From a virus, in IMG/VR virus record IMGVR_UViG_3300035193_000016: a DNA stretch of 38,378 nucleotides; one strand, 5' to 3'. How positions within the stretch are numbered: the first letter of the stretch is position 1; each line of letters starts with the position of its first letter. Below are positions 1,897-38,378 of this stretch, piece by piece. Both the position numbers and the translations under genes were made by a program. The notes below the pieces were generated by a model. The model was not told where the DNA came from. It saw nothing but the letters and a program-made list of their open reading frames with translations, and did no database searches.

Positions 1897-2402
1897 AAGT
1901 ATGCTACGTAGGCATCGACAACGGCGTGACTGGGAGCATTGGAGTTATTGATGACAATAGGACGTCGCGATTGTACGCAGTCCCGACGAAGCGAGAACAA
2001 AGCTACCAAAAGAAAAAGTCGTCGATCACTCGGGTGCATTTCCTCGAACTCGAGAGCCTGTTCGACCTGATCAATAAGCTGCACTTTGCGGAAGACATCC
2101 ATGTCTTCATCGAGCGCCCCTTCTACAACCCGAATGGGCTCAAGGCAACAGTGTCGGCTATGCGGTGCCTTGAGGCGGTACTGATTGCGGTCGAGATGAG
2201 AAACTGGCGCTATGAGTACGTCGACTCACGACAGTGGCAGCGGGAGCTTCTTCCCGCCGGGATCAAGGGGACGACAGACCTCAAGAGCGCGTCGCTCGAT
2301 ATCGGTACGCGCCTGTTTCCGCACCTCGCGGAGGGAATCAGGAAGCAGAAGGACGCAGACGGCCTACTCATTGCTGAGTGGGCGAGACGAAACAATAGGT
2401 AG
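1893..2402 (+). CDS. RuvC-like Holliday junction resolvase
   Basis: VGIDNG (Asp), FIERP (Glu) and C-terminal DADGLLIAEWARR (Asp) fit the RNase H-fold RuvC catalytic pattern. GTG start overlaps the upstream stop. Confidence 0.65.
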   Translation: MKVCYVGIDNGVTGSIGVIDDNRTSRLYAVPTKREQSYQKKKSSITRVHFLELESLFDLINKLHFAEDIHVFIERPFYNPNGLKATVSAMRCLEAVLIAVEMRNWRYEYVDSRQWQRELLPAGIKGTTDLKSASLDIGTRLFPHLAEGIRKQKDADGLLIAEWARRNNR

Positions 2403-2766
2403 CCAAACCGAGTCTACTGCGTTGCGGTGAATTTCGGATGGAAATGGCCAATGGACTATAGCCGATGGTAAAGAGGTTTTCCGAAGCATAGTCAGGAGGT
2501 TGCGGGGCCGCGACTATAACGCGGGGCAGAGTATCGGAATTTCCTGCCATTCCGAACACCGCCGACTAAACTATTATTTGGCCTGACAGGATCACGTGCG
2601 GTGCCCCATGACCAAGGCTAAGCACGGCGGCCCTATTGATCCGGTCTGGAGCCGTGGAAAACACGGGTGGCATGTGGAGCAGAAAGGCGAAGGGGAAGCT
2701 CAGTGATTGTGGGCACTCAATCTATTGCGACCCCAGGAGGTGGAATAACTCATGCCCGGCCACCAT

Positions 2767-2791
2767 GCAGGTTCGAATCCTGCCGCATGTC
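2767..2791 (+). ncRNA. orphan tRNA-like T-arm plus 3' acceptor strand (no canonical 5' half nearby)
   Basis: gcagg-ttcgaat-cctgc is a perfect 5-bp T-stem with a TTCGAAT loop, followed by cgcatgt. A complementary 7-mer acgtgcg lies at 2594-2600 and would give a G3:U70 pair. Confidence 0.4.
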
Positions 2792-2809
2792 AGTGTGGGG
2801 TGCGCACTC

Positions 2810-2881
2810 TCGCGAGTAGCTCAGTGGTAGAGCACTGGCACGTTAGCCAGGAGGTCGCCGGTTCAATCCCGGCCTCGCGAA
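2810..2881 (+). tRNA. tRNA-like gene, Asn(GUU)-like, with a non-canonical anticodon loop
   Basis: Acceptor tcgcgag/ctcgcga has 7 bp with U1:A72. D-arm is gctc-agtggta-gagc and T-arm is gccgg-ttcaatc-ccggc. The anticodon stem ctggc/gccag encloses only 6 nt (acgtta), and no U occupies the position expected for U33. Confidence 0.6.
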
Positions 2882-2897
2882 TTGGAGGGAACGACAT

Positions 2898-3740
2898 ATG
2901 ACCGACCACCCAATCCTCTACCAGCCCGATATGATACGGGCGAAGCTGGACGGACTCACTGACGGCGGACTTGGACGCAAGTGGCAGACGCTGAGGCTCG
3001 TGAAGCCGCAGCCGGATTGGATCGAAAACAGTGGTCGTTGGCATTGGCCGATCCCCAAGTCAAAGATACATCCAGGGGGTTGTACCGCAGTTGTCTCAGC
3101 ATCTCGTGAATGGTGGGAGTATCTATTACCAGACCAGATGCTGTATCAGCCCGGCGACCTGCTGTGGGTACGGGAGACATTTGCCGATCTTCGTGGGATG
3201 GGATTCGACACTGAGTTCGCATACCGAGCTGACGCGATTCATGCCGATGGTCACGAGGATGCAGATTCCAAGCGATGCCGACTCGATTTCGATGTGAACT
3301 GGAAACCGTCCATCCACATGCCGCGTTGGGCATCCCGCCTCACCGACCAGATCGGAGAGGTGCGCGTTGTGCGCGTGCAGGATATCACGCCGGAAGATGC
3401 GATAGCGGAAGGCCTGAGCGTGCGGCATCATGATCGCTTTGACGTCGATATCTACGGACTTGAGAGCTGGGCCGATGGATGGCGACAAAGCCCGATCGAT
3501 GCCTTTCATCGTCTGTGGGACTCCATTCACTCCAACCCGAAACGCTCGAAGCGAAACCCGTACACGCACGCTCCCGAGGACTGCTATGTCTCGTACCCGT
3601 GGGACGATATACAGGAAACTCAGCGATACGGCGATCTCCCATGGTACGTAGTCGGCAACCCGTTTGTGTGGGTGATCGTAAGTGCTCGCTCATGGGCCCG
3701 CAACGTCGACGAGGTGATCAAGATGCTGGAGTCGAAATGA
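2898..3740 (+). CDS. ASCH/PUA-like domain protein (conserved phage protein often next to DNA methyltransferases)
   Basis: N-terminal HPILYQPDMIRAKLDG...TLRLVKPQP, PGDLLWVRETF and WKPSIHMPRWASRL fit my memory of the ASCH-like phage family. RBS GGAGGGA lies upstream. Confidence 0.45.
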   Translation: MTDHPILYQPDMIRAKLDGLTDGGLGRKWQTLRLVKPQPDWIENSGRWHWPIPKSKIHPGGCTAVVSASREWWEYLLPDQMLYQPGDLLWVRETFADLRGMGFDTEFAYRADAIHADGHEDADSKRCRLDFDVNWKPSIHMPRWASRLTDQIGEVRVVRVQDITPEDAIAEGLSVRHHDRFDVDIYGLESWADGWRQSPIDAFHRLWDSIHSNPKRSKRNPYTHAPEDCYVSYPWDDIQETQRYGDLPWYVVGNPFVWVIVSARSWARNVDEVIKMLESK

Positions 3741-7575: not shown

Positions 7576-7665
7576 CCACCACGGTGCCAACGATGGTTTC
7601 ACGTGAAATACTTATCGCGTGTGTAGTAGTTCAGTCAAAAAAACCGGAAAAACCGGCCGATAACG

Positions 7666-7694
7666 GTTGACATATAGGTATATATGACCTATAC
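7666..7694 (+). promoter_or_regulatory. sigma70-type promoter (TTGACA - 17 bp - TATACT)
   Basis: Consensus -35 at 7666-7671, an exact 17-bp spacer, and -10 TATACT at 7689-7694. It sits in a 184-bp intergenic gap. Confidence 0.7.
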
Positions 7695-7759
7695 TATAGA
7701 CAGGTTGAGAGACCGACGGAGGCTGTAGGCCACCGGAAATTGCTACGGAGGAACGAGAG

Positions 7760-7939
7760 ATGGAAAAGACAATGACGATCAGGTGCAAGGCATTCGACGG
7801 CGAAGGCGTCCGCACAAATCGCGTGATGGTGGACGACGACGGCACCGTGCGTGTGTACGACAGCGTCGCGGGCTACTACACGACGTGTCACTCGCTCAGT
7901 GAGCGCACGATGCGGCGCATCCGAGCGATGAGTCGGTAG
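7760..7939 (+). CDS. small hypothetical protein (59 aa; absent from the ORF track)
   Basis: GGAGGA at 7747-7752 precedes the ATG at 7760. My translation is MEKTMTIRCKAFDGEGVRTNRVMVDDDGTVRVYDSVAGYYTTCHSLSERTMRRIRAMSR*, followed by a GC hairpin at 7948-7965. Confidence 0.6.
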   Translation: MEKTMTIRCKAFDGEGVRTNRVMVDDDGTVRVYDSVAGYYTTCHSLSERTMRRIRAMSR

Positions 7940-8007
7940 CAGAGGGGCGGGGGCTACGGCCCCCGGTAATGCACAAGCCGGTCCCAAGTCCGGCAGAGGA
8001 GTGAGAG

Positions 8008-8268
8008 ATGAGGTACAGAGTCGAGAAATACGCAGCTGACGGTCGTGGAGGCGCTGAGGACGAGTACGTCATCGGCGAGACGAGCAACATCTGCGAAGCG
8101 CGAGCGATGGTAAGATCGGAGCTCGGTCTCCAGAGACTCAGCGCACGACGGCGATGGAGCGGTTCCGGAGGAATCGACTCGGACGGCGAGCCGATCCTAG
8201 CGGTGGAGGCGTATCATGACTCGCTCACCGAGATCGGATGCGGTGGAGTCGTGATTGTAGAGGCATGA
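8008..8268 (+). CDS. hypothetical protein
   Basis: 86-aa ORF with GAGGAG upstream. Confidence 0.55.
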   Translation: MRYRVEKYAADGRGGAEDEYVIGETSNICEARAMVRSELGLQRLSARRRWSGSGGIDSDGEPILAVEAYHDSLTEIGCGGVVIVEA

Positions 8269-8385
8269 CGGCAACGGTTACTGCATCACCTGCGGAGCCG
8301 ATGGCCGAGCGTAGGGCAAGGCCGAGCCCCGTGAAACCCGGGGCCGCCCCGAAAGGGGCGCGGCGCTCAACCTACGGAGGATCAG

Positions 8386-8598
8386 ATGATGAACGAAACC
8401 GACACACAAATCAGACTACGCAGAGCCAAAGAGGCTCTTGCGGCCGCAAGAGAGGCTGAGTCGAGAGCAATCACCGCGCGATCCGAAGCCGCAGAAACAA
8501 GGCGAAGAGCAAAGGAGAGATACGACGAACTGTTTCTCAGGGAGGTACAGGAAGAGTACACCCGACGGATGGCTAACTATAGGCACGCGACGAAGTAG
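8386..8598 (+). CDS. hypothetical coiled-coil protein
   Basis: 70-aa ORF with GGAGGA 6 nt upstream. Charged helical sequence. Confidence 0.55.
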   Translation: MMNETDTQIRLRRAKEALAAAREAESRAITARSEAAETRRRAKERYDELFLREVQEEYTRRMANYRHATK

Positions 8599-9324: not shown

Positions 9325-9396
9325 CATGTTGGAGTCAACCCCATATATGTGGCCGCTGATCGAGCTACTAATCAACCGAGAGCGAGGTGTGTGAGA

Positions 9397-10209
9397 ATGA
9401 GGTATTTGGTCACGGGCGGAACCGGCAGCTTTGGGAGCCGATTTGTTGAACGAGTCATTACGGACGGGCACGAAGCGATAGTGTTTTCGAGGGATGAGCT
9501 CAAGCAGTATGAGATGCGAAAACGCATCACCGGTGCCGAATATGTGATTGGCGATGTTCGCGATAACGCAGCTTTGGAGGAAACCATTAGTCGACGTCGA
9601 TGCAACCGTGTCGTCCACGCCGCAGCACTGAAGCATGTACACACCGGCGAGACTCAGCCATGGGAGTCGGTTAAGACGAATATCATCGGCACGAAAAACG
9701 TAGTTGATGTCTGTGATGATTGGGGATGCGAGCTTGTGTTTCTGTCTACCGACAAGGCCGTTGAACCGGTAAATCTTTACGGCGCAACGAAAATGATAGC
9801 CGAGAGAATCATTCTTGATGCCGGCCAACGGGTTGTAAGGTATGGCAACGTGTTCGGGTCTCGCGGCTCGGTGCTCCACGTATTCGATACGCAGAAGCGG
9901 GACGGCGTGTTTACTATTACCGATCAGCGTATGACGCGGTTTGTGATTACGCTCGATGAGGCGGTTGATTTTGTTCTCAATGCATTCGAAGGCAATACGG
10001 GAACCGTTAGCATCCCAGTTCTTCGGGCTATTCGCATTGTTGATCTTGCAAGAGCTTTCGACCCAACCGCTGAGATACGAGAGATAGGCGTGCAGCCTGG
10101 CGAAAAACTGGCCGAGGTGCTTGGGGATGGTCAGCGATCTGACGAGGCGCCGCTGTTATCGGTTGATGAGATTCGGGAGCTGATCAATGAAACCCTACAC
10201 GATCGTTGA
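9397..10209 (+). CDS. pseB: UDP-GlcNAc 4,6-dehydratase (PseB/FlaA1/CapD family)
   Basis: YLVTGGTGSFG, SRDELKQYEM, IGDVRD, HAAALKHV, KTNIIGTKNV, LSTDKAVEPVNLYGATK, VRYGNVFGSRGSV, ITDQRMTRFVITLDEAV and PGEKLAEV are collinear with FlaA1/PseB motifs as I recall them. ATG at 9397 lies in frame within track ORF 9349... Confidence 0.85.
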   Translation: MRYLVTGGTGSFGSRFVERVITDGHEAIVFSRDELKQYEMRKRITGAEYVIGDVRDNAALEETISRRRCNRVVHAAALKHVHTGETQPWESVKTNIIGTKNVVDVCDDWGCELVFLSTDKAVEPVNLYGATKMIAERIILDAGQRVVRYGNVFGSRGSVLHVFDTQKRDGVFTITDQRMTRFVITLDEAVDFVLNAFEGNTGTVSIPVLRAIRIVDLARAFDPTAEIREIGVQPGEKLAEVLGDGQRSDEAPLLSVDEIRELINETLHDR

Positions 10210-10780
10210 CGCCTTCGAGGAGCGGGTCGCCGAGTATGCCGGAGCTAAGTATGGCGTAGGGGTCAATAGCTGCACCTCTGCAATTATGCTCTCTGCAAAG
10301 TATCGATTTATGCATCGCTACCACACGAGGGCATATCTACCGAGCAGGACGTATGTTGGAGTACCAAACGCGATTATTGCCGCTGGTGGTGAAGTAAATT
10401 TTAAGGACTTTCAATGGTCTGGATGGTACCAGATTCTCCCTCTCGGCATTATCGATAGTGCCCGCAGATTTAGGAAAGGAATGTACAAAGACGGCACGCT
10501 CTATTGCATTTCTTTCCATTGGGGTAAGCATCTCAAAATAGGCACTGGGGGTATGGTTCTTACCGACGATGAGGAGGCATGGAAGGAGTTGAAACGGCTC
10601 AGACATGACGGGAGGACACCGACAATTCACCCGAAACGTGATACAATTGGTTTTGGTTGGCACGTCGGAATGGCTCCAGAAGATGCGGCGAAAGGGCTCA
10701 TGCTCATGCAATATATGCCTGACTACAACGAAGACATTCCATGGGATGACTATCCAGATTGCTCGAGGATATTTTTATGA
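10187..10780 (+). CDS. DegT/DnrJ/EryC1-type PLP sugar aminotransferase, strongly shortened (PseC/LegC-like)
   Basis: FEERVAEYAGAKYGVGVNSCTSAI, IIDSARRF and ISFHWGKHLKIGTGGMVLTDD (PLP-lysine motif SFHxxK) are present. The protein is only 197 aa. Confidence 0.7.
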   Translation: MKPYTIVDAFEERVAEYAGAKYGVGVNSCTSAIMLSAKYRFMHRYHTRAYLPSRTYVGVPNAIIAAGGEVNFKDFQWSGWYQILPLGIIDSARRFRKGMYKDGTLYCISFHWGKHLKIGTGGMVLTDDEEAWKELKRLRHDGRTPTIHPKRDTIGFGWHVGMAPEDAAKGLMLMQYMPDYNEDIPWDDYPDCSRIFL

Positions 10781-10992
10781 GTTGGATAGATGATTCTGTA
10801 TCAAAGGCAATGATTCGAGACACGAAAAAGAAGCTTAAGGCAACCATCATTGATCAATACAACAGACTGATTGAATGCGAATACGATCGCGACGAAGCGG
10901 TAGCGGCAATCAAGGGGCAGATACTGACGATATCACCAGAGCATTGGCCACTTGTAGAACTATGGCTGTCGAAAAAGGAGCGAGGGGAATGA
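10777..10992 (+). CDS. hypothetical 71-aa protein inside the sugar cassette
   Basis: ATG at 10777 overlaps the upstream TGA. No family recognised. Confidence 0.5.
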   Translation: MSWIDDSVSKAMIRDTKKKLKATIIDQYNRLIECEYDRDEAVAAIKGQILTISPEHWPLVELWLSKKERGE

Positions 10993-11591
10993 GTCAATTC
11001 ATTATTGAGTTAGGTTCGGCAAACGAACATCACAACGACATTGGATATCTGCGCGACATGATTGATGCGGTGATCGACTGCGATACAGGCAAGCACAGCA
11101 TTGTCATGAAGCATCAGCTATTCGAGCATGCCGGTGGGAACGAACCGCTCTTGTGGCGCACGTTTGCATGGGCATATGGCTATGCGTGTGAGCGAGGATA
11201 CCCAACAACGGCCAGCGTGTTCGACATCACCTCACTCCATTTCCTTGAACGATTTGACGTGCCGTTTGTCAAGATCGCTTGCGTCCCAAAGCTGTACTGG
11301 CTTGCTCGCAAGACTGACCGTCACGTGTACTTGAGCGTCAATGGCACGTATCCCGAGATAGAAGGCGAGACACACCTTGCATGCGTGCGAAGCTACCCGG
11401 CAGACGCCGCGCAGTACGTGCACAACTTCAGCTCGCTCAAGGTCATCTCAGACCACACCGAAGGCTGGGGCCTTTACAAAAGGTACTTGCCTGTTATCAT
11501 TGAGAAGCACTTTTGCCTCAAACGATCTTCCGACAATCCCGATTCTGGACCGTTCGCGGTTACGCCGAAAGAGCTTGCGGAGGTACTGTGA
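10989..11591 (+). CDS. NeuB/PseI/LegI-type nonulosonic acid synthase, minimal (no SAF domain)
   Basis: IIELGSANEHH, VMKHQLF, FVKIACVP, YLSVNG, ISDHTEGWG and IIEKHFCLKRSSDNPDSGPFAVTPKEL are collinear with NeuB-family motifs. 200 aa. Confidence 0.7.
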   Translation: MSQFIIELGSANEHHNDIGYLRDMIDAVIDCDTGKHSIVMKHQLFEHAGGNEPLLWRTFAWAYGYACERGYPTTASVFDITSLHFLERFDVPFVKIACVPKLYWLARKTDRHVYLSVNGTYPEIEGETHLACVRSYPADAAQYVHNFSSLKVISDHTEGWGLYKRYLPVIIEKHFCLKRSSDNPDSGPFAVTPKELAEVL

Positions 11592-12103
11592 TGAGGATTG
11601 CATTTTGCACCAACAACGAAAACACTCATCCTACCGCACGTTGGCTGCACACCGTCGCCGATGTGGCGATCTATGACGACCATAAGTTGATAGATGATTG
11701 CGACCTGATCGTGAGCTATAACTATCGCTACATTGTTCCAGCAAAGCTGCTGAACAAGTACCCGGCAATCAATCTGCACATGAGTCTGTTGCCGTGGAAT
11801 CGCGGAGCACATCCGATCGTGTGGGCCGCGCGTGAAGGGACTCCGTTCGGCGTCACGATCCACGAGATGACTCCAGCGCTTGATCGAGGGAACATCATCG
11901 CTCAGAGAGAGATACAGATACCCAAAACGTACACGCTCAAACAGGCATATCAACGACACCAAGACGAGATGCTGACGCTGTTGCAGAATACGTGGCAGAG
12001 TATTGTGCAAATGGTCGGGAGTTACCACCATACCGGCCAACTCGGTGATCTCTCAAATGGCTGGGATACTACCATCGAGGAGGTTCGCAATGCTCCGGCT
12101 TGA
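11591..12103 (+). CDS. formyltransferase (Formyl_trans_N-type; sugar N-formyltransferase candidate)
   Basis: IVSYNYRYIVP ... NLHMSLLPWNRGAHPIVWA ... GVTIHEMTPALDRGNII matches the HxSLLPxxRG signature. 170 aa, covering the N-domain only. Confidence 0.7.
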   Translation: MRIAFCTNNENTHPTARWLHTVADVAIYDDHKLIDDCDLIVSYNYRYIVPAKLLNKYPAINLHMSLLPWNRGAHPIVWAAREGTPFGVTIHEMTPALDRGNIIAQREIQIPKTYTLKQAYQRHQDEMLTLLQNTWQSIVQMVGSYHHTGQLGDLSNGWDTTIEEVRNAPA

Positions 12104-12569
12104 ACCACTGAAGCTTGTTCATGCGCTCATGGCGCTTGAGTGGCGTGCAGAGCAGCCGAATTGCCTGAGAACAAGATATCAGATATCAGAAGATGAGCAG
12201 GTGAATTGGTGGAAACAACATCGACAATGGTGGTTTACCATAACGGATGATGGAACACCCATTGGATACACCGGGTTTGGAAGCTTCGGTACCATGCCCG
12301 AGCTGTCGTTTTTGATCACAAAATCAGCATGGGACATCTGGCAAGAGGCATTTGATCTTGTAATCCATAAAGGGATCAAAGCCGACTTTTTCGTCGCCGA
12401 AGTGTACCTTGATTCTGAGACATTGGCGGAATGGACACTTGCCGCACGGCGCTATTCCGCTGGTTCGGTGATTTTTCCAAGGCGAAAAAAAACAAGCGGC
12501 GGCGATTTTGTGGATTCGCTGCTGATTGTATTTAACGGGGAATCATTCGAGGAGAAAGCCGATGCGTAA
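12090..12569 (+). CDS. GNAT-like N-acetyltransferase (PseH-like candidate)
   Basis: MLRLEPL...LEWRAEQPNCLRTRYQISEDEQVNWW resembles the N-terminus of PseH/GNAT proteins. GAGGAGG upstream. The call rests mainly on context. Confidence 0.5.
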   Translation: MLRLEPLKLVHALMALEWRAEQPNCLRTRYQISEDEQVNWWKQHRQWWFTITDDGTPIGYTGFGSFGTMPELSFLITKSAWDIWQEAFDLVIHKGIKADFFVAEVYLDSETLAEWTLAARRYSAGSVIFPRRKKTSGGDFVDSLLIVFNGESFEEKADA

Positions 12570-13176
12570 CGTCTGTATCATCCCGGCGCGGAAAGGATCG
12601 AAGCGGCTGCCTGGGAAGAACCGAATCGAGTTTTTCGGCCGGCCGATTATTCAGAACCCGATAGATGCCGCTGTATCATCCGGATTGTTTGAGCGGATCG
12701 AAGTATCTACCGACGATGAAGCCATGCGCAACATCGTGTTTCCACCCGCTGTGATAAACTGGAGATCGCCCGAGCTCTGTGCCGATGATGTTCCCGATAT
12801 CGATGTTGTGCGTCACTATTGTGACCGACACCGGGATGCAACGTATCTATGTTATCTGTATGCCACCGCTGCGCTTGTGACGCCGGCGCAATTGCTTCGT
12901 GGTCTATCACTGTTGAGGCGATCCGGCGTTGTGAGTACATACTGTTGCGTCGGTCATTCAACTGCCGATGTCGGACAATTTTACTGGTTTGATGTCGCGG
13001 CGATGATATCCAACAAGCTCCAAACCCAAATTGGATTAGTGCTTGACGATCTAGAATGCCAGGACATCAATACTGCCGACGATCTGTGGATTGCTGAACA
13101 GAAGTTGCGGGCGACTCGGAACTACATCACGCTCAAAACACGCGAAGTATCAGATCAGGAAAGTGGGCTGAAGTAA
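12562..13176 (+). CDS. CMP-nonulosonic acid cytidylyltransferase (NeuA/PseF/LegF family)
   Basis: The N-terminal CIIPARKGSKRLPGKN signature is followed by IEVSTDD. GGAGAAAG upstream. Confidence 0.8.
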   Translation: MRNVCIIPARKGSKRLPGKNRIEFFGRPIIQNPIDAAVSSGLFERIEVSTDDEAMRNIVFPPAVINWRSPELCADDVPDIDVVRHYCDRHRDATYLCYLYATAALVTPAQLLRGLSLLRRSGVVSTYCCVGHSTADVGQFYWFDVAAMISNKLQTQIGLVLDDLECQDINTADDLWIAEQKLRATRNYITLKTREVSDQESGLK

Positions 13177-24054: not shown

Positions 24055-24253
24055 AGTGACCGTTTGGTTCGACACCGACACAATTTTGCGTCGTCACATC
24101 GGGACAATTACCAATCTCGATTTGAACGGCAAGCCGATAAAGACAGGCGAGGCGCTTGCCGACGGGCCACCAGCGCTCGGCGGGCTTATCGATGAGCTCA
24201 AGGCGTATGTATGCAGCGAGGATGGAATTGAGGATGGTGAAGAAAAAAACTGA
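23897..24253 (+). CDS. tail assembly chaperone (gpG-like)
   Basis: Position before the tape measure, an acidic C-terminus, and it ends at a slippery run followed by an open -1 frame. Confidence 0.7.
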   Translation: MKVVANLDEKYVPMWNKNRSLPEADQVVVQIKWPTNAQREMLKGYRINPKTSEVTVWFDTDTILRRHIGTITNLDLNGKPIKTGEALADGPPALGGLIDELKAYVCSEDGIEDGEEKN

Positions 24254-38080: not shown

Positions 38081-38378
38081 GTGCGTTCAAGGTTCGCCAG
38101 AATGGGAACAAGCACGCTGCGGCATTATCACAGCGTCACGTATCTCCGACATCCTCGCGCAAGGACGTGGCGGAGCGCCGTCGGCGAGCCGAAAAAACTA
38201 CATGATGGAGCTGCTCGTTGAGCGGCTCACCTGGCAGCCAGCCGAGCACTACCGCAGCCAGGCCATGGAACGCGGATCGGAGGAGGAGGCAGGTGCGCGC
38301 ACGCTGTACGAGTTTCGCACCGATGCGATCGTCACCGAGGTTGGTCTGGTGCTGCATCCGACGCTCGACTATCTTGCC
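38067..38378 (+). CDS. YqaJ/lambda-Exo-like recombination exonuclease, N-terminal part (runs off the window and continues at 2-448)
   Basis: The ATG at 38067 overlaps the ERF stop. MRIVECVQGSPEWEQARCGIITASRISDIL is the YqaJ N-terminal signature. Confidence 0.85.
   Translation, partial: MRIVECVQGSPEWEQARCGIITASRISDILAQGRGGAPSASRKNYMMELLVERLTWQPAEHYRSQAMERGSEEEAGARTLYEFRTDAIVTEVGLVLHPTLDYLA
38252..38378. repeat. terminal direct repeat copy 2 (identical to 1-127)
   Basis: See copy 1. Confidence 0.95.

Follow-up and report, generated by a model that had tools for sequence, protein, structure and literature searches.

Anticodon loops of transfer RNAs (tRNAs) have 7 nucleotides (nt) "with very few exceptions" (PMC9897764; PMC5009743), and the identity of bacterial tRNA-Asn rests on its anticodon together with the discriminator base G73, while the U1:A72 pair serves the amidotransferase route (PMC9976931). 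Non-standard loop sizes have been described in a yeast mitochondrial tRNA, which has an extra loop base, in tRNAs of a phage with many relatives, and in a glass-sponge mitochondrial tRNA; no frameshifting is known to result from any of them (Atkins et al. 2016, PMC5009743). The subject of this study is a tRNA-Asn-like gene and its surroundings in the virus record IMGVR_UViG_3300035193_000016, the whole 38,378-nt stretch of which is referred to here as the window, where the gene lies in a 495-bp non-coding gap (positions 2403-2897). It shares with the described exceptions the rare departure from 7 nt, and with some of them the setting in a phage, but its loop is contracted to 6 nt. The phage cases of non-standard loop size are, like the yeast example, enlarged loops.

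Altered anticodon loops in phage tRNAs are also known from conflicts with host defenses. Mutations of the anticodon loop allow phage tRNAs to escape anticodon nucleases (PMC10264068). The PARIS effector AriB is documented to act on tRNA-Asn(GUU) as a secondary target, and tRNA-Asn, tRNA-Lys and tRNA-Thr variants of phage T5 neutralize PARIS, the authors suggesting that some viral tRNAs might be inhibitors (PMC12409363). The known evading variants keep a canonical loop (PMC12409363), in contrast to the tRNA of the window. The element described here is best described as a non-canonical, probably non-decoding derivative of a phage tRNA-Asn, situated in an accessory cassette of tRNA-gene debris. 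The features of the gap are as follows.

2403-2510, + strand: conserved 3' trailer of the Holliday-junction-resolvase module, outside the tRNA cassette (identity to the closest relative; fold z score 0.03)
2511-2897, + strand: accessory cassette, not present in the closest relative, of two short hairpins, decayed tRNA-like debris, a minihelix and a tRNA-like gene
2686-2764, + strand: possible decayed copy of the neighboring tRNA, weakly indicated by three collinear short matches
2750-2790, + strand: apparent internally deleted Asn-type tRNA ("minihelix"; local fold, likeness to a metagenomic tRNA-Asn, one homologue)
2810-2881, + strand: tRNA-Asn-derived tRNA-like gene (Rfam tRNA model, ARAGORN, BLAST, fold z score)
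2835-2850, + strand: its remodelled anticodon arm, with stem CTGGC 2835-2839 / GCCAG 2846-2850 and loop ACGTTA 2840-2845
2885-2900, + strand: Shine-Dalgarno sequence GGAGGG (2885-2890) and ATG (2898) of an ASCH-like gene, read from the sequence

The gene at 2810-2881 scores 52.9 bits with the Rfam tRNA model (RF00005; gathering score 29), with 6 loop nucleotides aligned where the model has 7, and is called by ARAGORN as tRNA-???, that is tRNA-?(Thr|Asn), with the two-base anticodon "gt". All 21 pairs of its stems (7-bp acceptor, 4-bp D, 5-bp anticodon and 5-bp T stem) are perfect Watson-Crick pairs and include U1:A72. The core and tertiary nucleotides, as judged from the sequence and the Rfam alignment, are conserved without exception (U8, A14, G15-C48, G18G19, G53-T54-T55-C56, A58 and C61). 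The cloverleaf is the minimum-energy fold and makes up 62% of the ensemble, with a z score of -3.29 and not one equally stable sequence among 200 shuffles. These results bear out the original prediction, made by a model from the letters alone, that acceptor, D and T arms of good quality and a U1:A72 pair are present.

The anticodon arm is where the gene departs from its family. A canonical loop has 7 nt, U33 and a purine at position 37; here the loop is the 6-nt ACGUUA, and canonical numbering (A32 C33 G34 U35 U36 A37 G38) places a C at position 33. The form with a 5-bp stem and a 6-nt loop has a folding energy of -32.7 kcal/mol, compared with -28.8 kcal/mol for a 4-bp stem with an 8-nt loop and -20.4 kcal/mol for the canonical 27-43 register, so that forcing the alternatives would cost 3.9 and 12.3 kcal/mol, respectively. 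The 3' strand of the stem is shifted by one base towards the loop, and G43 joins the variable loop; the variable loop has 6 nt. An assembly error is an unlikely cause of the short loop, because no single insertion restores a canonical loop and because the identical sequence is present as an independent Logan contig from SRR11711952. Rfam, ARAGORN and the energies thus agree on the short loop without U33 that had been read from the sequence, and no tool re-paired the arm into a normal 7-nt loop.

Comparison with phage tRNA-Asn(GUU) genes, such as that of Caulobacter phage CcrBL9 and the PARIS-neutralizing variant of T5, delimits the changes. The CcrBL9 gene is the best database match (82% by BLAST, about 82% in pairwise alignment); both genes are 72 nt long with the same D-arm, and their differences are concentrated in the anticodon arm. 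U1:A72, the GUU triplet, A37 and the position among phage early genes are shared as well. The window RNA differs in its loop (ACGUUA versus CUGUUAA), in C33, in the anticodon-stem 3' strand that has slid by one base, in the 6-nt variable loop, and in its discriminator (A73 versus G73); CCA is not encoded. The loop (C/T)UGUUAA occurs in all seven tRNA-Asn genes collected from the fetched loci, and the four with a readable discriminator (L001, L022, L100 and L108) have G73. Of the Asn identity set, GUU and U1:A72 are therefore present in the window RNA, but with A73 in place of G73 and GUU held in a 6-nt loop without U33, both Asn identity elements, anticodon and discriminator, are compromised. 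The gene is a tRNA-Asn derivative that very probably does not decode, in line with the original suggestion of a decoding-defective or atypical tRNA, or a mimic.

Searches for similar elements yielded few candidates. In INPHARED, blastn with the tRNA returned generic tRNA similarity only. A metagenome contig (Ga0114946_10029691; locus L106, 3136-3203) carries at its end a tRNA of 53.7 bits with a shortened loop, CCGGG-UUGC-UCCGG, called by ARAGORN as tRNA-??? with anticodon "tg"; contracted-loop tRNA-like genes are therefore not unique to the phage of the window. A 14-nt complementarity between the D-arm (2825-2838) and codons 5-9 of the next gene (2910-2923) was also seen and was taken as chance (blast E 2.7).

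A second tRNA-type element lies just upstream. A perfect T-arm (gcagg-ttcgaat-cctgc, 2767-2783) is followed by the 3' acceptor strand CGCATGT (2784-2790), which ends 19 nt before the tRNA-like gene, as had been noted, and the motif GGTTCRANYCC is found just twice in the 38 kb, in this orphan T-arm and in 2810-2881. The claim that no 5' half is nearby was not confirmed. TCATGCC (2750-2756), separated from the T-arm by a 10-nt linker, pairs around it in the minimum-energy fold, although the acceptor so formed has just 5 bp (CATGC/GCATG) flanked by two mismatches. A metagenomic tRNA-Asn(GTT) (L100) has the acceptor TCATGCG/CGCATGA and a T-arm identical to that of the window; given this likeness, 2750-2790 looks like an Asn-type tRNA without positions 8-48, a minihelix from which the D and anticodon arms are gone. 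Orphan T-arms with a 3' acceptor strand next to an intact tRNA-type gene have been described among tRNA fragments and pseudo-tRNAs, which are also accessory and mosaic (van der Gulik et al. 2023, PMC9897764). The window fragment differs from these in having both acceptor strands, with an internal deletion and not a 3' duplication, and neither an integrase nor a full-length partner tRNA was found.

A first metagenome pattern for the T-arm element gave no matches. A second one, T-arm plus a CGCATG 3' end, gave 14, of which 11 were called as tRNAs (10 standard isotypes and one tRNA-???). Exact and degenerate patterns for either the tRNA or the T-arm element returned from IMG/VR no matches or chance matches only. 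Among the latter, a contig (3300037418_001409; L007, 592-637) contains an orphan T-arm without a callable tRNA, arranged as CATGC, a 16-nt hairpin linker, GCGG-TTCGAAT-CCGC and CGCATG, within a 500-nt non-coding region after an acyl-carrier-protein-like gene; this match is compatible with chance. A further orphan T-arm without a callable tRNA was seen in a metagenome (L105).

The 21-mer GGTTCGAATCCTGCCGCATGT, which comprises the T-arm and acceptor strand, was scanned against 185,579 species genomes and had a single match, in a metagenome-assembled genome (MAG) of the Actinomycetota (locus L006; CAWELM010000007.1, 2990-3057). Homology between the two loci spans about 60 nt (CCAGGNGG...CATGCCCG...CAGGTTCGAATCCTGCCGCATGTC), with 24 nt exact plus CATGCCCG and CCAGGNGG; beyond this span, upstream of the T-arm, the two are no more alike than expected by chance. 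In L006, GCATGCC, the T-arm and CGCATGT are retained, and the element folds into the same local minihelix, with helix bases identical to those of the window, so that these two sequences show no covariation. Its linker is 7 nt shorter, an indel that excludes a shared reading frame. The L006 element has no match to a tRNA, a tmRNA (transfer-messenger RNA) or any Rfam family. It follows a STAND-NTPase/WD40 gene at a distance of about 380 nt, and the contig ends 13 nt after it, possibly at the boundary of an island or prophage.

The closest relative of the window locus reveals that the gap is composite. A protein 95% identical to the resolvase (P0121) is encoded on a 1,346-nt Joint Genome Institute (JGI) contig, L109, and nucleotide identity between the two loci is 95% over window positions 1904-2510, where homology ends. 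The coding part contains 26 mismatches, 16 of them at third codon positions, and the 108 non-coding nt 2403-2510 contain 2 substitutions and 1 indel. After this point L109 has a strong terminator-like hairpin (z score -3.4) and an unrelated 114-residue gene, and no tRNA. The mosaic breakpoint (L109 830-870 versus window 2500-2530) falls inside the 5' arm of this GC-rich terminator-like hairpin, which is intact only in L109. Since homology stops at about 2510, the gap consists of a conserved trailer (2403-2510) and an accessory cassette (2511-2897). The phage of the window lacks the terminator of L109, and neither a terminator nor a consensus promoter was predicted in window 2100-3200; the early operon should therefore read through into the cassette.

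More distant relatives were compared as well. No such RNA island was found in those examined for either flanking gene, where the genes are tightly packed, nor around the relatives examined of the phrog_874 family to which the downstream gene belongs (5779 homologues at E<=1e-3, at most about 50% identity). Among methylase neighborhoods, 2 of 80 loci have ordinary tRNAs nearby, but in unrelated phages. The gap itself shows no coding periodicity. It had been described as the only large coding gap of the genome; it is indeed the largest, but the stretch 7576-7759 (184 nt) and ribozyme-bearing spacers up to 8386 are non-coding too.

The remainder of the cassette contains less well-defined sequence. 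Both hairpins listed in the original prediction, ccgcg-actataa-cgcgg (2508-2524) and cggaat-ttcctgcc-attccg (2535-2554), are present, and the region that holds them folds no better than shuffled sequence (z score 0.05). Between the hairpins and the tRNA-like gene, three collinear matches to the latter (AGCTCAGTG, 2697=2818; CCAGGAGGT, 2733=2847; TCATGCCCGGCC, 2750~2863) and a local alignment (score 31; top 0.3% among 3804 windows of the genome) suggest that 2686-2764 is a decayed tRNA copy; the Rfam tRNA model at E<=10 gave no match there. A third tRNA-derived unit at 2452-2530, considered because of a repeated CAGGAGGT motif, was rejected (alignment rank 7%; motif not conserved in L109).

Based on these data, the best explanation, in which we place moderate confidence, would be that of an accessory cassette derived from tRNA genes, co-transcribed with the early genes and processed by the host, whose product is a non-decoding relic or mimic. 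Such a cassette would have three layers: a tRNA-Asn derivative with disabled identity and decoding features, the minihelix directly upstream, and more decayed debris beyond. It would be transcribed as part of the early + strand operon, because no terminator separates it from the early genes. tRNAs are known to punctuate polycistronic RNAs, and RNase P also cleaves acceptor/T-arm minihelices and a small RNA of phage phi80. According to the established substrate rules of RNase P, the 3' endonuclease and the CCA-adding enzymes, which recognize an intact acceptor/T-arm/D-arm body, the transcript would be cut at 2810 (by RNase P) and just after 2881 and would receive CCA. The minihelix resembles the RNase P minihelix substrates in being an acceptor/T-arm stack within an operon, immediately before a gene start; it differs in its 5-bp acceptor with two flanking mismatches and is a predicted substrate only. 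Cleavage after A73 would set free an RNA of tRNA shape, and the ASCH-like gene would retain a 16-nt leader with its Shine-Dalgarno sequence, which starts 4 nt after the discriminator, with the ATG 17 nt after it. The released RNA would not be expected to be charged by asparaginyl-tRNA synthetase or by a non-discriminating aspartyl-tRNA synthetase, nor to decode normally, and for this reason would be a non-decoding relic or mimic.

The only effect of the tRNA-like RNA that would be nearly certain is transcript punctuation, which by analogy would parallel two self-cleaving ribozymes between other small genes of the phage. The corresponding features are the following.

7667-7695, + strand: near-consensus sigma-70 promoter (TTGACA, 17 nt, TATACT; 11/12 matches)
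7938-7993, + strand: Twister-P5 ribozyme (61 bits), starting at the stop codon of the open reading frame (ORF) 7760-7939
8309-8379, + strand: Twister-sister ribozyme (54 bits), ending 6 nt before the ATG at 8386

The two ribozymes occupy consecutive intercistronic spacers that flank an 86-residue ORF (8008-8268), and the small ORFs next to them have no Pfam match. The promoter is positioned in the 184-nt non-coding stretch 7576-7759 and heads this ribozyme-containing small-gene operon. The gene that would be freed by cleavage after the tRNA-like RNA (ORF 2898-3740, + strand) matches phrog_874, a very large uncharacterized phage family, and contains a GxKTQTRR motif; its confident AlphaFold model (predicted local distance difference test score, pLDDT, 85.7) shows a weak fold match to ASCH domains, which are PUA-like and either RNA-binding or N4-acetylcytidine (ac4C) amidohydrolase domains.

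Several observations weigh against the explanation as a processed, tRNA-gene-derived cassette. A simple pseudogene should gather stem mismatches, and 2810-2881 keeps all 21 pairs and its tertiary bases; the perfect body together with a perfect, shifted 5-bp stem resembles selection for a deliberately altered loop and may point to a trans-acting role, for example as a decoy. No second sequence of this tRNA turned up in IMG/VR (exact and degenerate patterns) or INPHARED. The statistical support for the decayed copy at 2686-2764 is only moderate, and the assignment of 2489-2506 to debris fails, as its motif is not kept in L109. Finally, some 390 nt of apparently functionless DNA would be unusual in a tightly packed 38-kb phage.

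The genomic context bears on the remaining readings. The window has an exact 127-nt terminal direct repeat (1-127 = 38252-38378), an assembler k-mer overlap; it is therefore a circular assembly of about 38,251 bp, and the genome is circular or circularly permuted. Judged by Pfam and PHROGs scans, which took in about 67 ORFs, the gene content is siphovirus-like. These scans identified the following:

a recombination module of ERF, YqaJ exonuclease, single-stranded DNA-binding protein (SSB) and Holliday-junction resolvase
a DNA methylase and a replication initiator
virion genes for terminase, SPP1-type portal, capsid, tape measure and tail fiber

The portal protein has at best about 35% identity to that of any cultured phage. 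No integrase (tyrosine or serine recombinase) and no repressor was detected in this complete circular genome, in agreement with the original observation on integrases, and no scanned ORF matched a TROVE/Rsr (Ro60) protein. At 9349-13176 (+ strand) lies a sugar-nucleotide cluster typical of nonulosonic (pseudaminic or legionaminic-type) acid synthesis, with genes for a PseB-like dehydratase, a DegT aminotransferase, NeuB, a formyltransferase and a cytidylyltransferase, an unusual cargo for a 38-kb phage.

Other identities for the cassette were weighed against this background. The original prediction listed, among other interpretations, a tRNA-like RNA, tmRNA-like or of another type, about 200 nt long, in which pairing of acgtgcg (2594-2600) with 2784-2790 would enclose about 185 nt. 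The T-arm with its 3' acceptor strand does recall tmRNA, and the 7-bp helix with G3:U70 exists and forms in the minimum-energy fold of 2594-2791 alone, but the partner is not the only good one, a second full 7/7 partner being GCATGTG (2670-2676). A 7/7 partner, or more than one, arose in 30% of dinucleotide shuffles of the upstream sequence, and in 14% when at most one G:U was allowed, a chance level of 0.14-0.30. Moreover, 2594-2791 folds with a z score of +0.67, the helix is unused when the whole island is folded (z score +0.22), and L006 keeps the local partner and not the distant 2594 strand. ARAGORN detected no tmRNA, standard or permuted, at default settings or with thresholds relaxed to 70%, Rfam gave no tmRNA-family match at E<=10 on 2300-2950, and a tag reading frame, pseudoknots and CCA are missing, which together make such an RNA highly improbable. 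Relaxed ARAGORN runs (60-70%, introns) produced poor overlapping calls, a tRNA-Ala at 2723-2791 and a tRNA-Met at 2661-2791 with a 55-nt "intron," that were rejected as noise, as were the other Rfam matches at E<=10 (antisense Plastid-ycf2 and PYLIS). A Y RNA-like (YrlA) RNA over 2745-2860 is the least credible of all the readings. RF02553 does match there with 32.4 bits (E 4e-5), and the order of T-arm and then D-arm in a tRNA-like module is shared; however, the score is far from the gathering score of 69, the match combines the T-arm of one element with the D-arm of the complete neighboring cloverleaf, the inner stem and the closing Ro-binding stem are missing, several pairs are non-canonical, and the genome scans found no Rsr gene. 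This architecture places the match in the class of dimeric-tRNA false positives described by the authors of the family (PMC4201824). Protein-coding genes filling the gap, such as ORFs 2636-2830, 2596-2706 and 2752-2901, are very doubtful as well: the frames exist, and AGGAGG (2735-2740) lies 11 nt before the ATG at 2752, but their codon-position composition is unlike that of the flanking genes, tblastn found no match in 50,697 phage records, the 7-nt indel in L006 breaks any frame, and the ORFs cross the high-scoring tRNA. The ORF 2752-2901 (+ strand; 49 residues), which spans the T-arm as well as the entire tRNA-like gene and has an ATGA overlap with the next gene, is probably spurious. An integration relic, either a phage attachment site (attP) or host-derived att-site DNA captured with the T-arm and 3' acceptor fragment, is improbable, yet better grounded than these. 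Fragments of tRNA 3' ends are the classic trace that integration leaves (PMC9897764); the cassette, compared with L109, is a mosaic insertion, and about 60 nt are shared with an Actinomycetota MAG, at a contig end downstream of the STAND-NTPase/WD40 gene. Against it stand the lack of a detected integrase or repressor, the chance-level similarity to L006 past those 60 nt, and the finding that the L006 element, the sole 21-mer match, is neither a tRNA nor a tmRNA gene. An attP of the proposed type would reproduce the 3' part of a tRNA or tmRNA gene of the host; this 3' end occurs in no tRNA of the 185,579 species representatives, and similar ends are found in metagenomic tRNAs of several isotypes. 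Neither a tmRNA-like RNA nor a Y RNA is supported as the identity of the cassette, and no attP could be demonstrated in it.

What the tRNA-like RNA might do, beyond being a relic, was considered in the same way. As an anti-defense mimic or decoy, the tRNA-Asn-shaped RNA, perhaps with the minihelix, would bind, titrate or resist a nuclease directed at tRNA-Asn(GUU), its loop having been remodelled against cleavage. The main argument for a possible function in trans is the contrast between the perfect body and the specifically altered loop and discriminator, with at least three changes concentrated in the 7-nt loop and discriminator; in addition, a canonical anticodon loop is missing from each of the two Asn-type elements that lie in tandem, tRNA-Asn(GUU) is a target of AriB and T5 variants neutralize PARIS (PMC12409363), and anticodon-loop mutations are an established means of evasion (PMC10264068). 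Known evading tRNAs, however, remain competent for decoding, with a 7-nt loop and substitutions at the recognition or cleavage site of the nuclease, and here such substitutions are accompanied by a 6-nt loop without U33 and by the loss of G73. The cassette is also absent from L109, and patterns run against IMG/VR produced no further examples. The released RNA might act as a decoy in trans, but as an account of the locus this is rather unlikely. Less likely again is a tRNA that still decodes, reading AAC/AAU (or ACG) despite its 6-nt loop or being prone to shift. G34-U35-U36-A37 is kept, U1:A72, the D-arm and the T-arm are canonical, and the phage uses AAC and AAU at 21 and 16 per thousand codons; nevertheless, without U33 there is no canonical U-turn, a 7-nt register would cost about 12 kcal/mol, A73 is not the identity element G73, and a tRNA that read doublets at every AAC codon would do harm. 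A variant of this idea concerns the phage's own tail-assembly-chaperone genes, which have a -1 frameshift site A_AAA_AAC at 24244-24250 (+ strand) with the 0-frame stop TGA directly after it (to 24253) and a -1 frame open to 24627, overlapping the start of the tape measure. The A-site codon of the slip site, AAC (Asn), matches GUU, and a "shifty" tRNA with two-base or slippage-prone reading could conceivably set the G:GT ratio there. This proposal rests on a coincidence of codon identity for which the prior, an Asn A-site codon, is about 1 in 4-5, and a role on the ribosome of any kind is made less likely by A73 as the discriminator and by the absence of U33. The proposal is barely plausible.

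The significance of the locus depends on which reading applies. If the cassette is only a relic, as the tRNA-gene-derived explanation allows, it offers a clean example of the decay of a phage tRNA gene and cautions against counting tRNA-??? calls and orphan T-arms as new RNA classes. If the intact body and altered loop reflect selection, a non-decoding mimic would extend the arms race between phage tRNAs and host nucleases from resistant substitutes to pure decoys. Should the frameshift proposal be true, it would provide the first natural case of programmed frameshifting by a tRNA whose anticodon loop is shortened. More generally, with two ribozyme-bearing spacers, the genome is a compact test case for operon organization based on RNA processing in phages.

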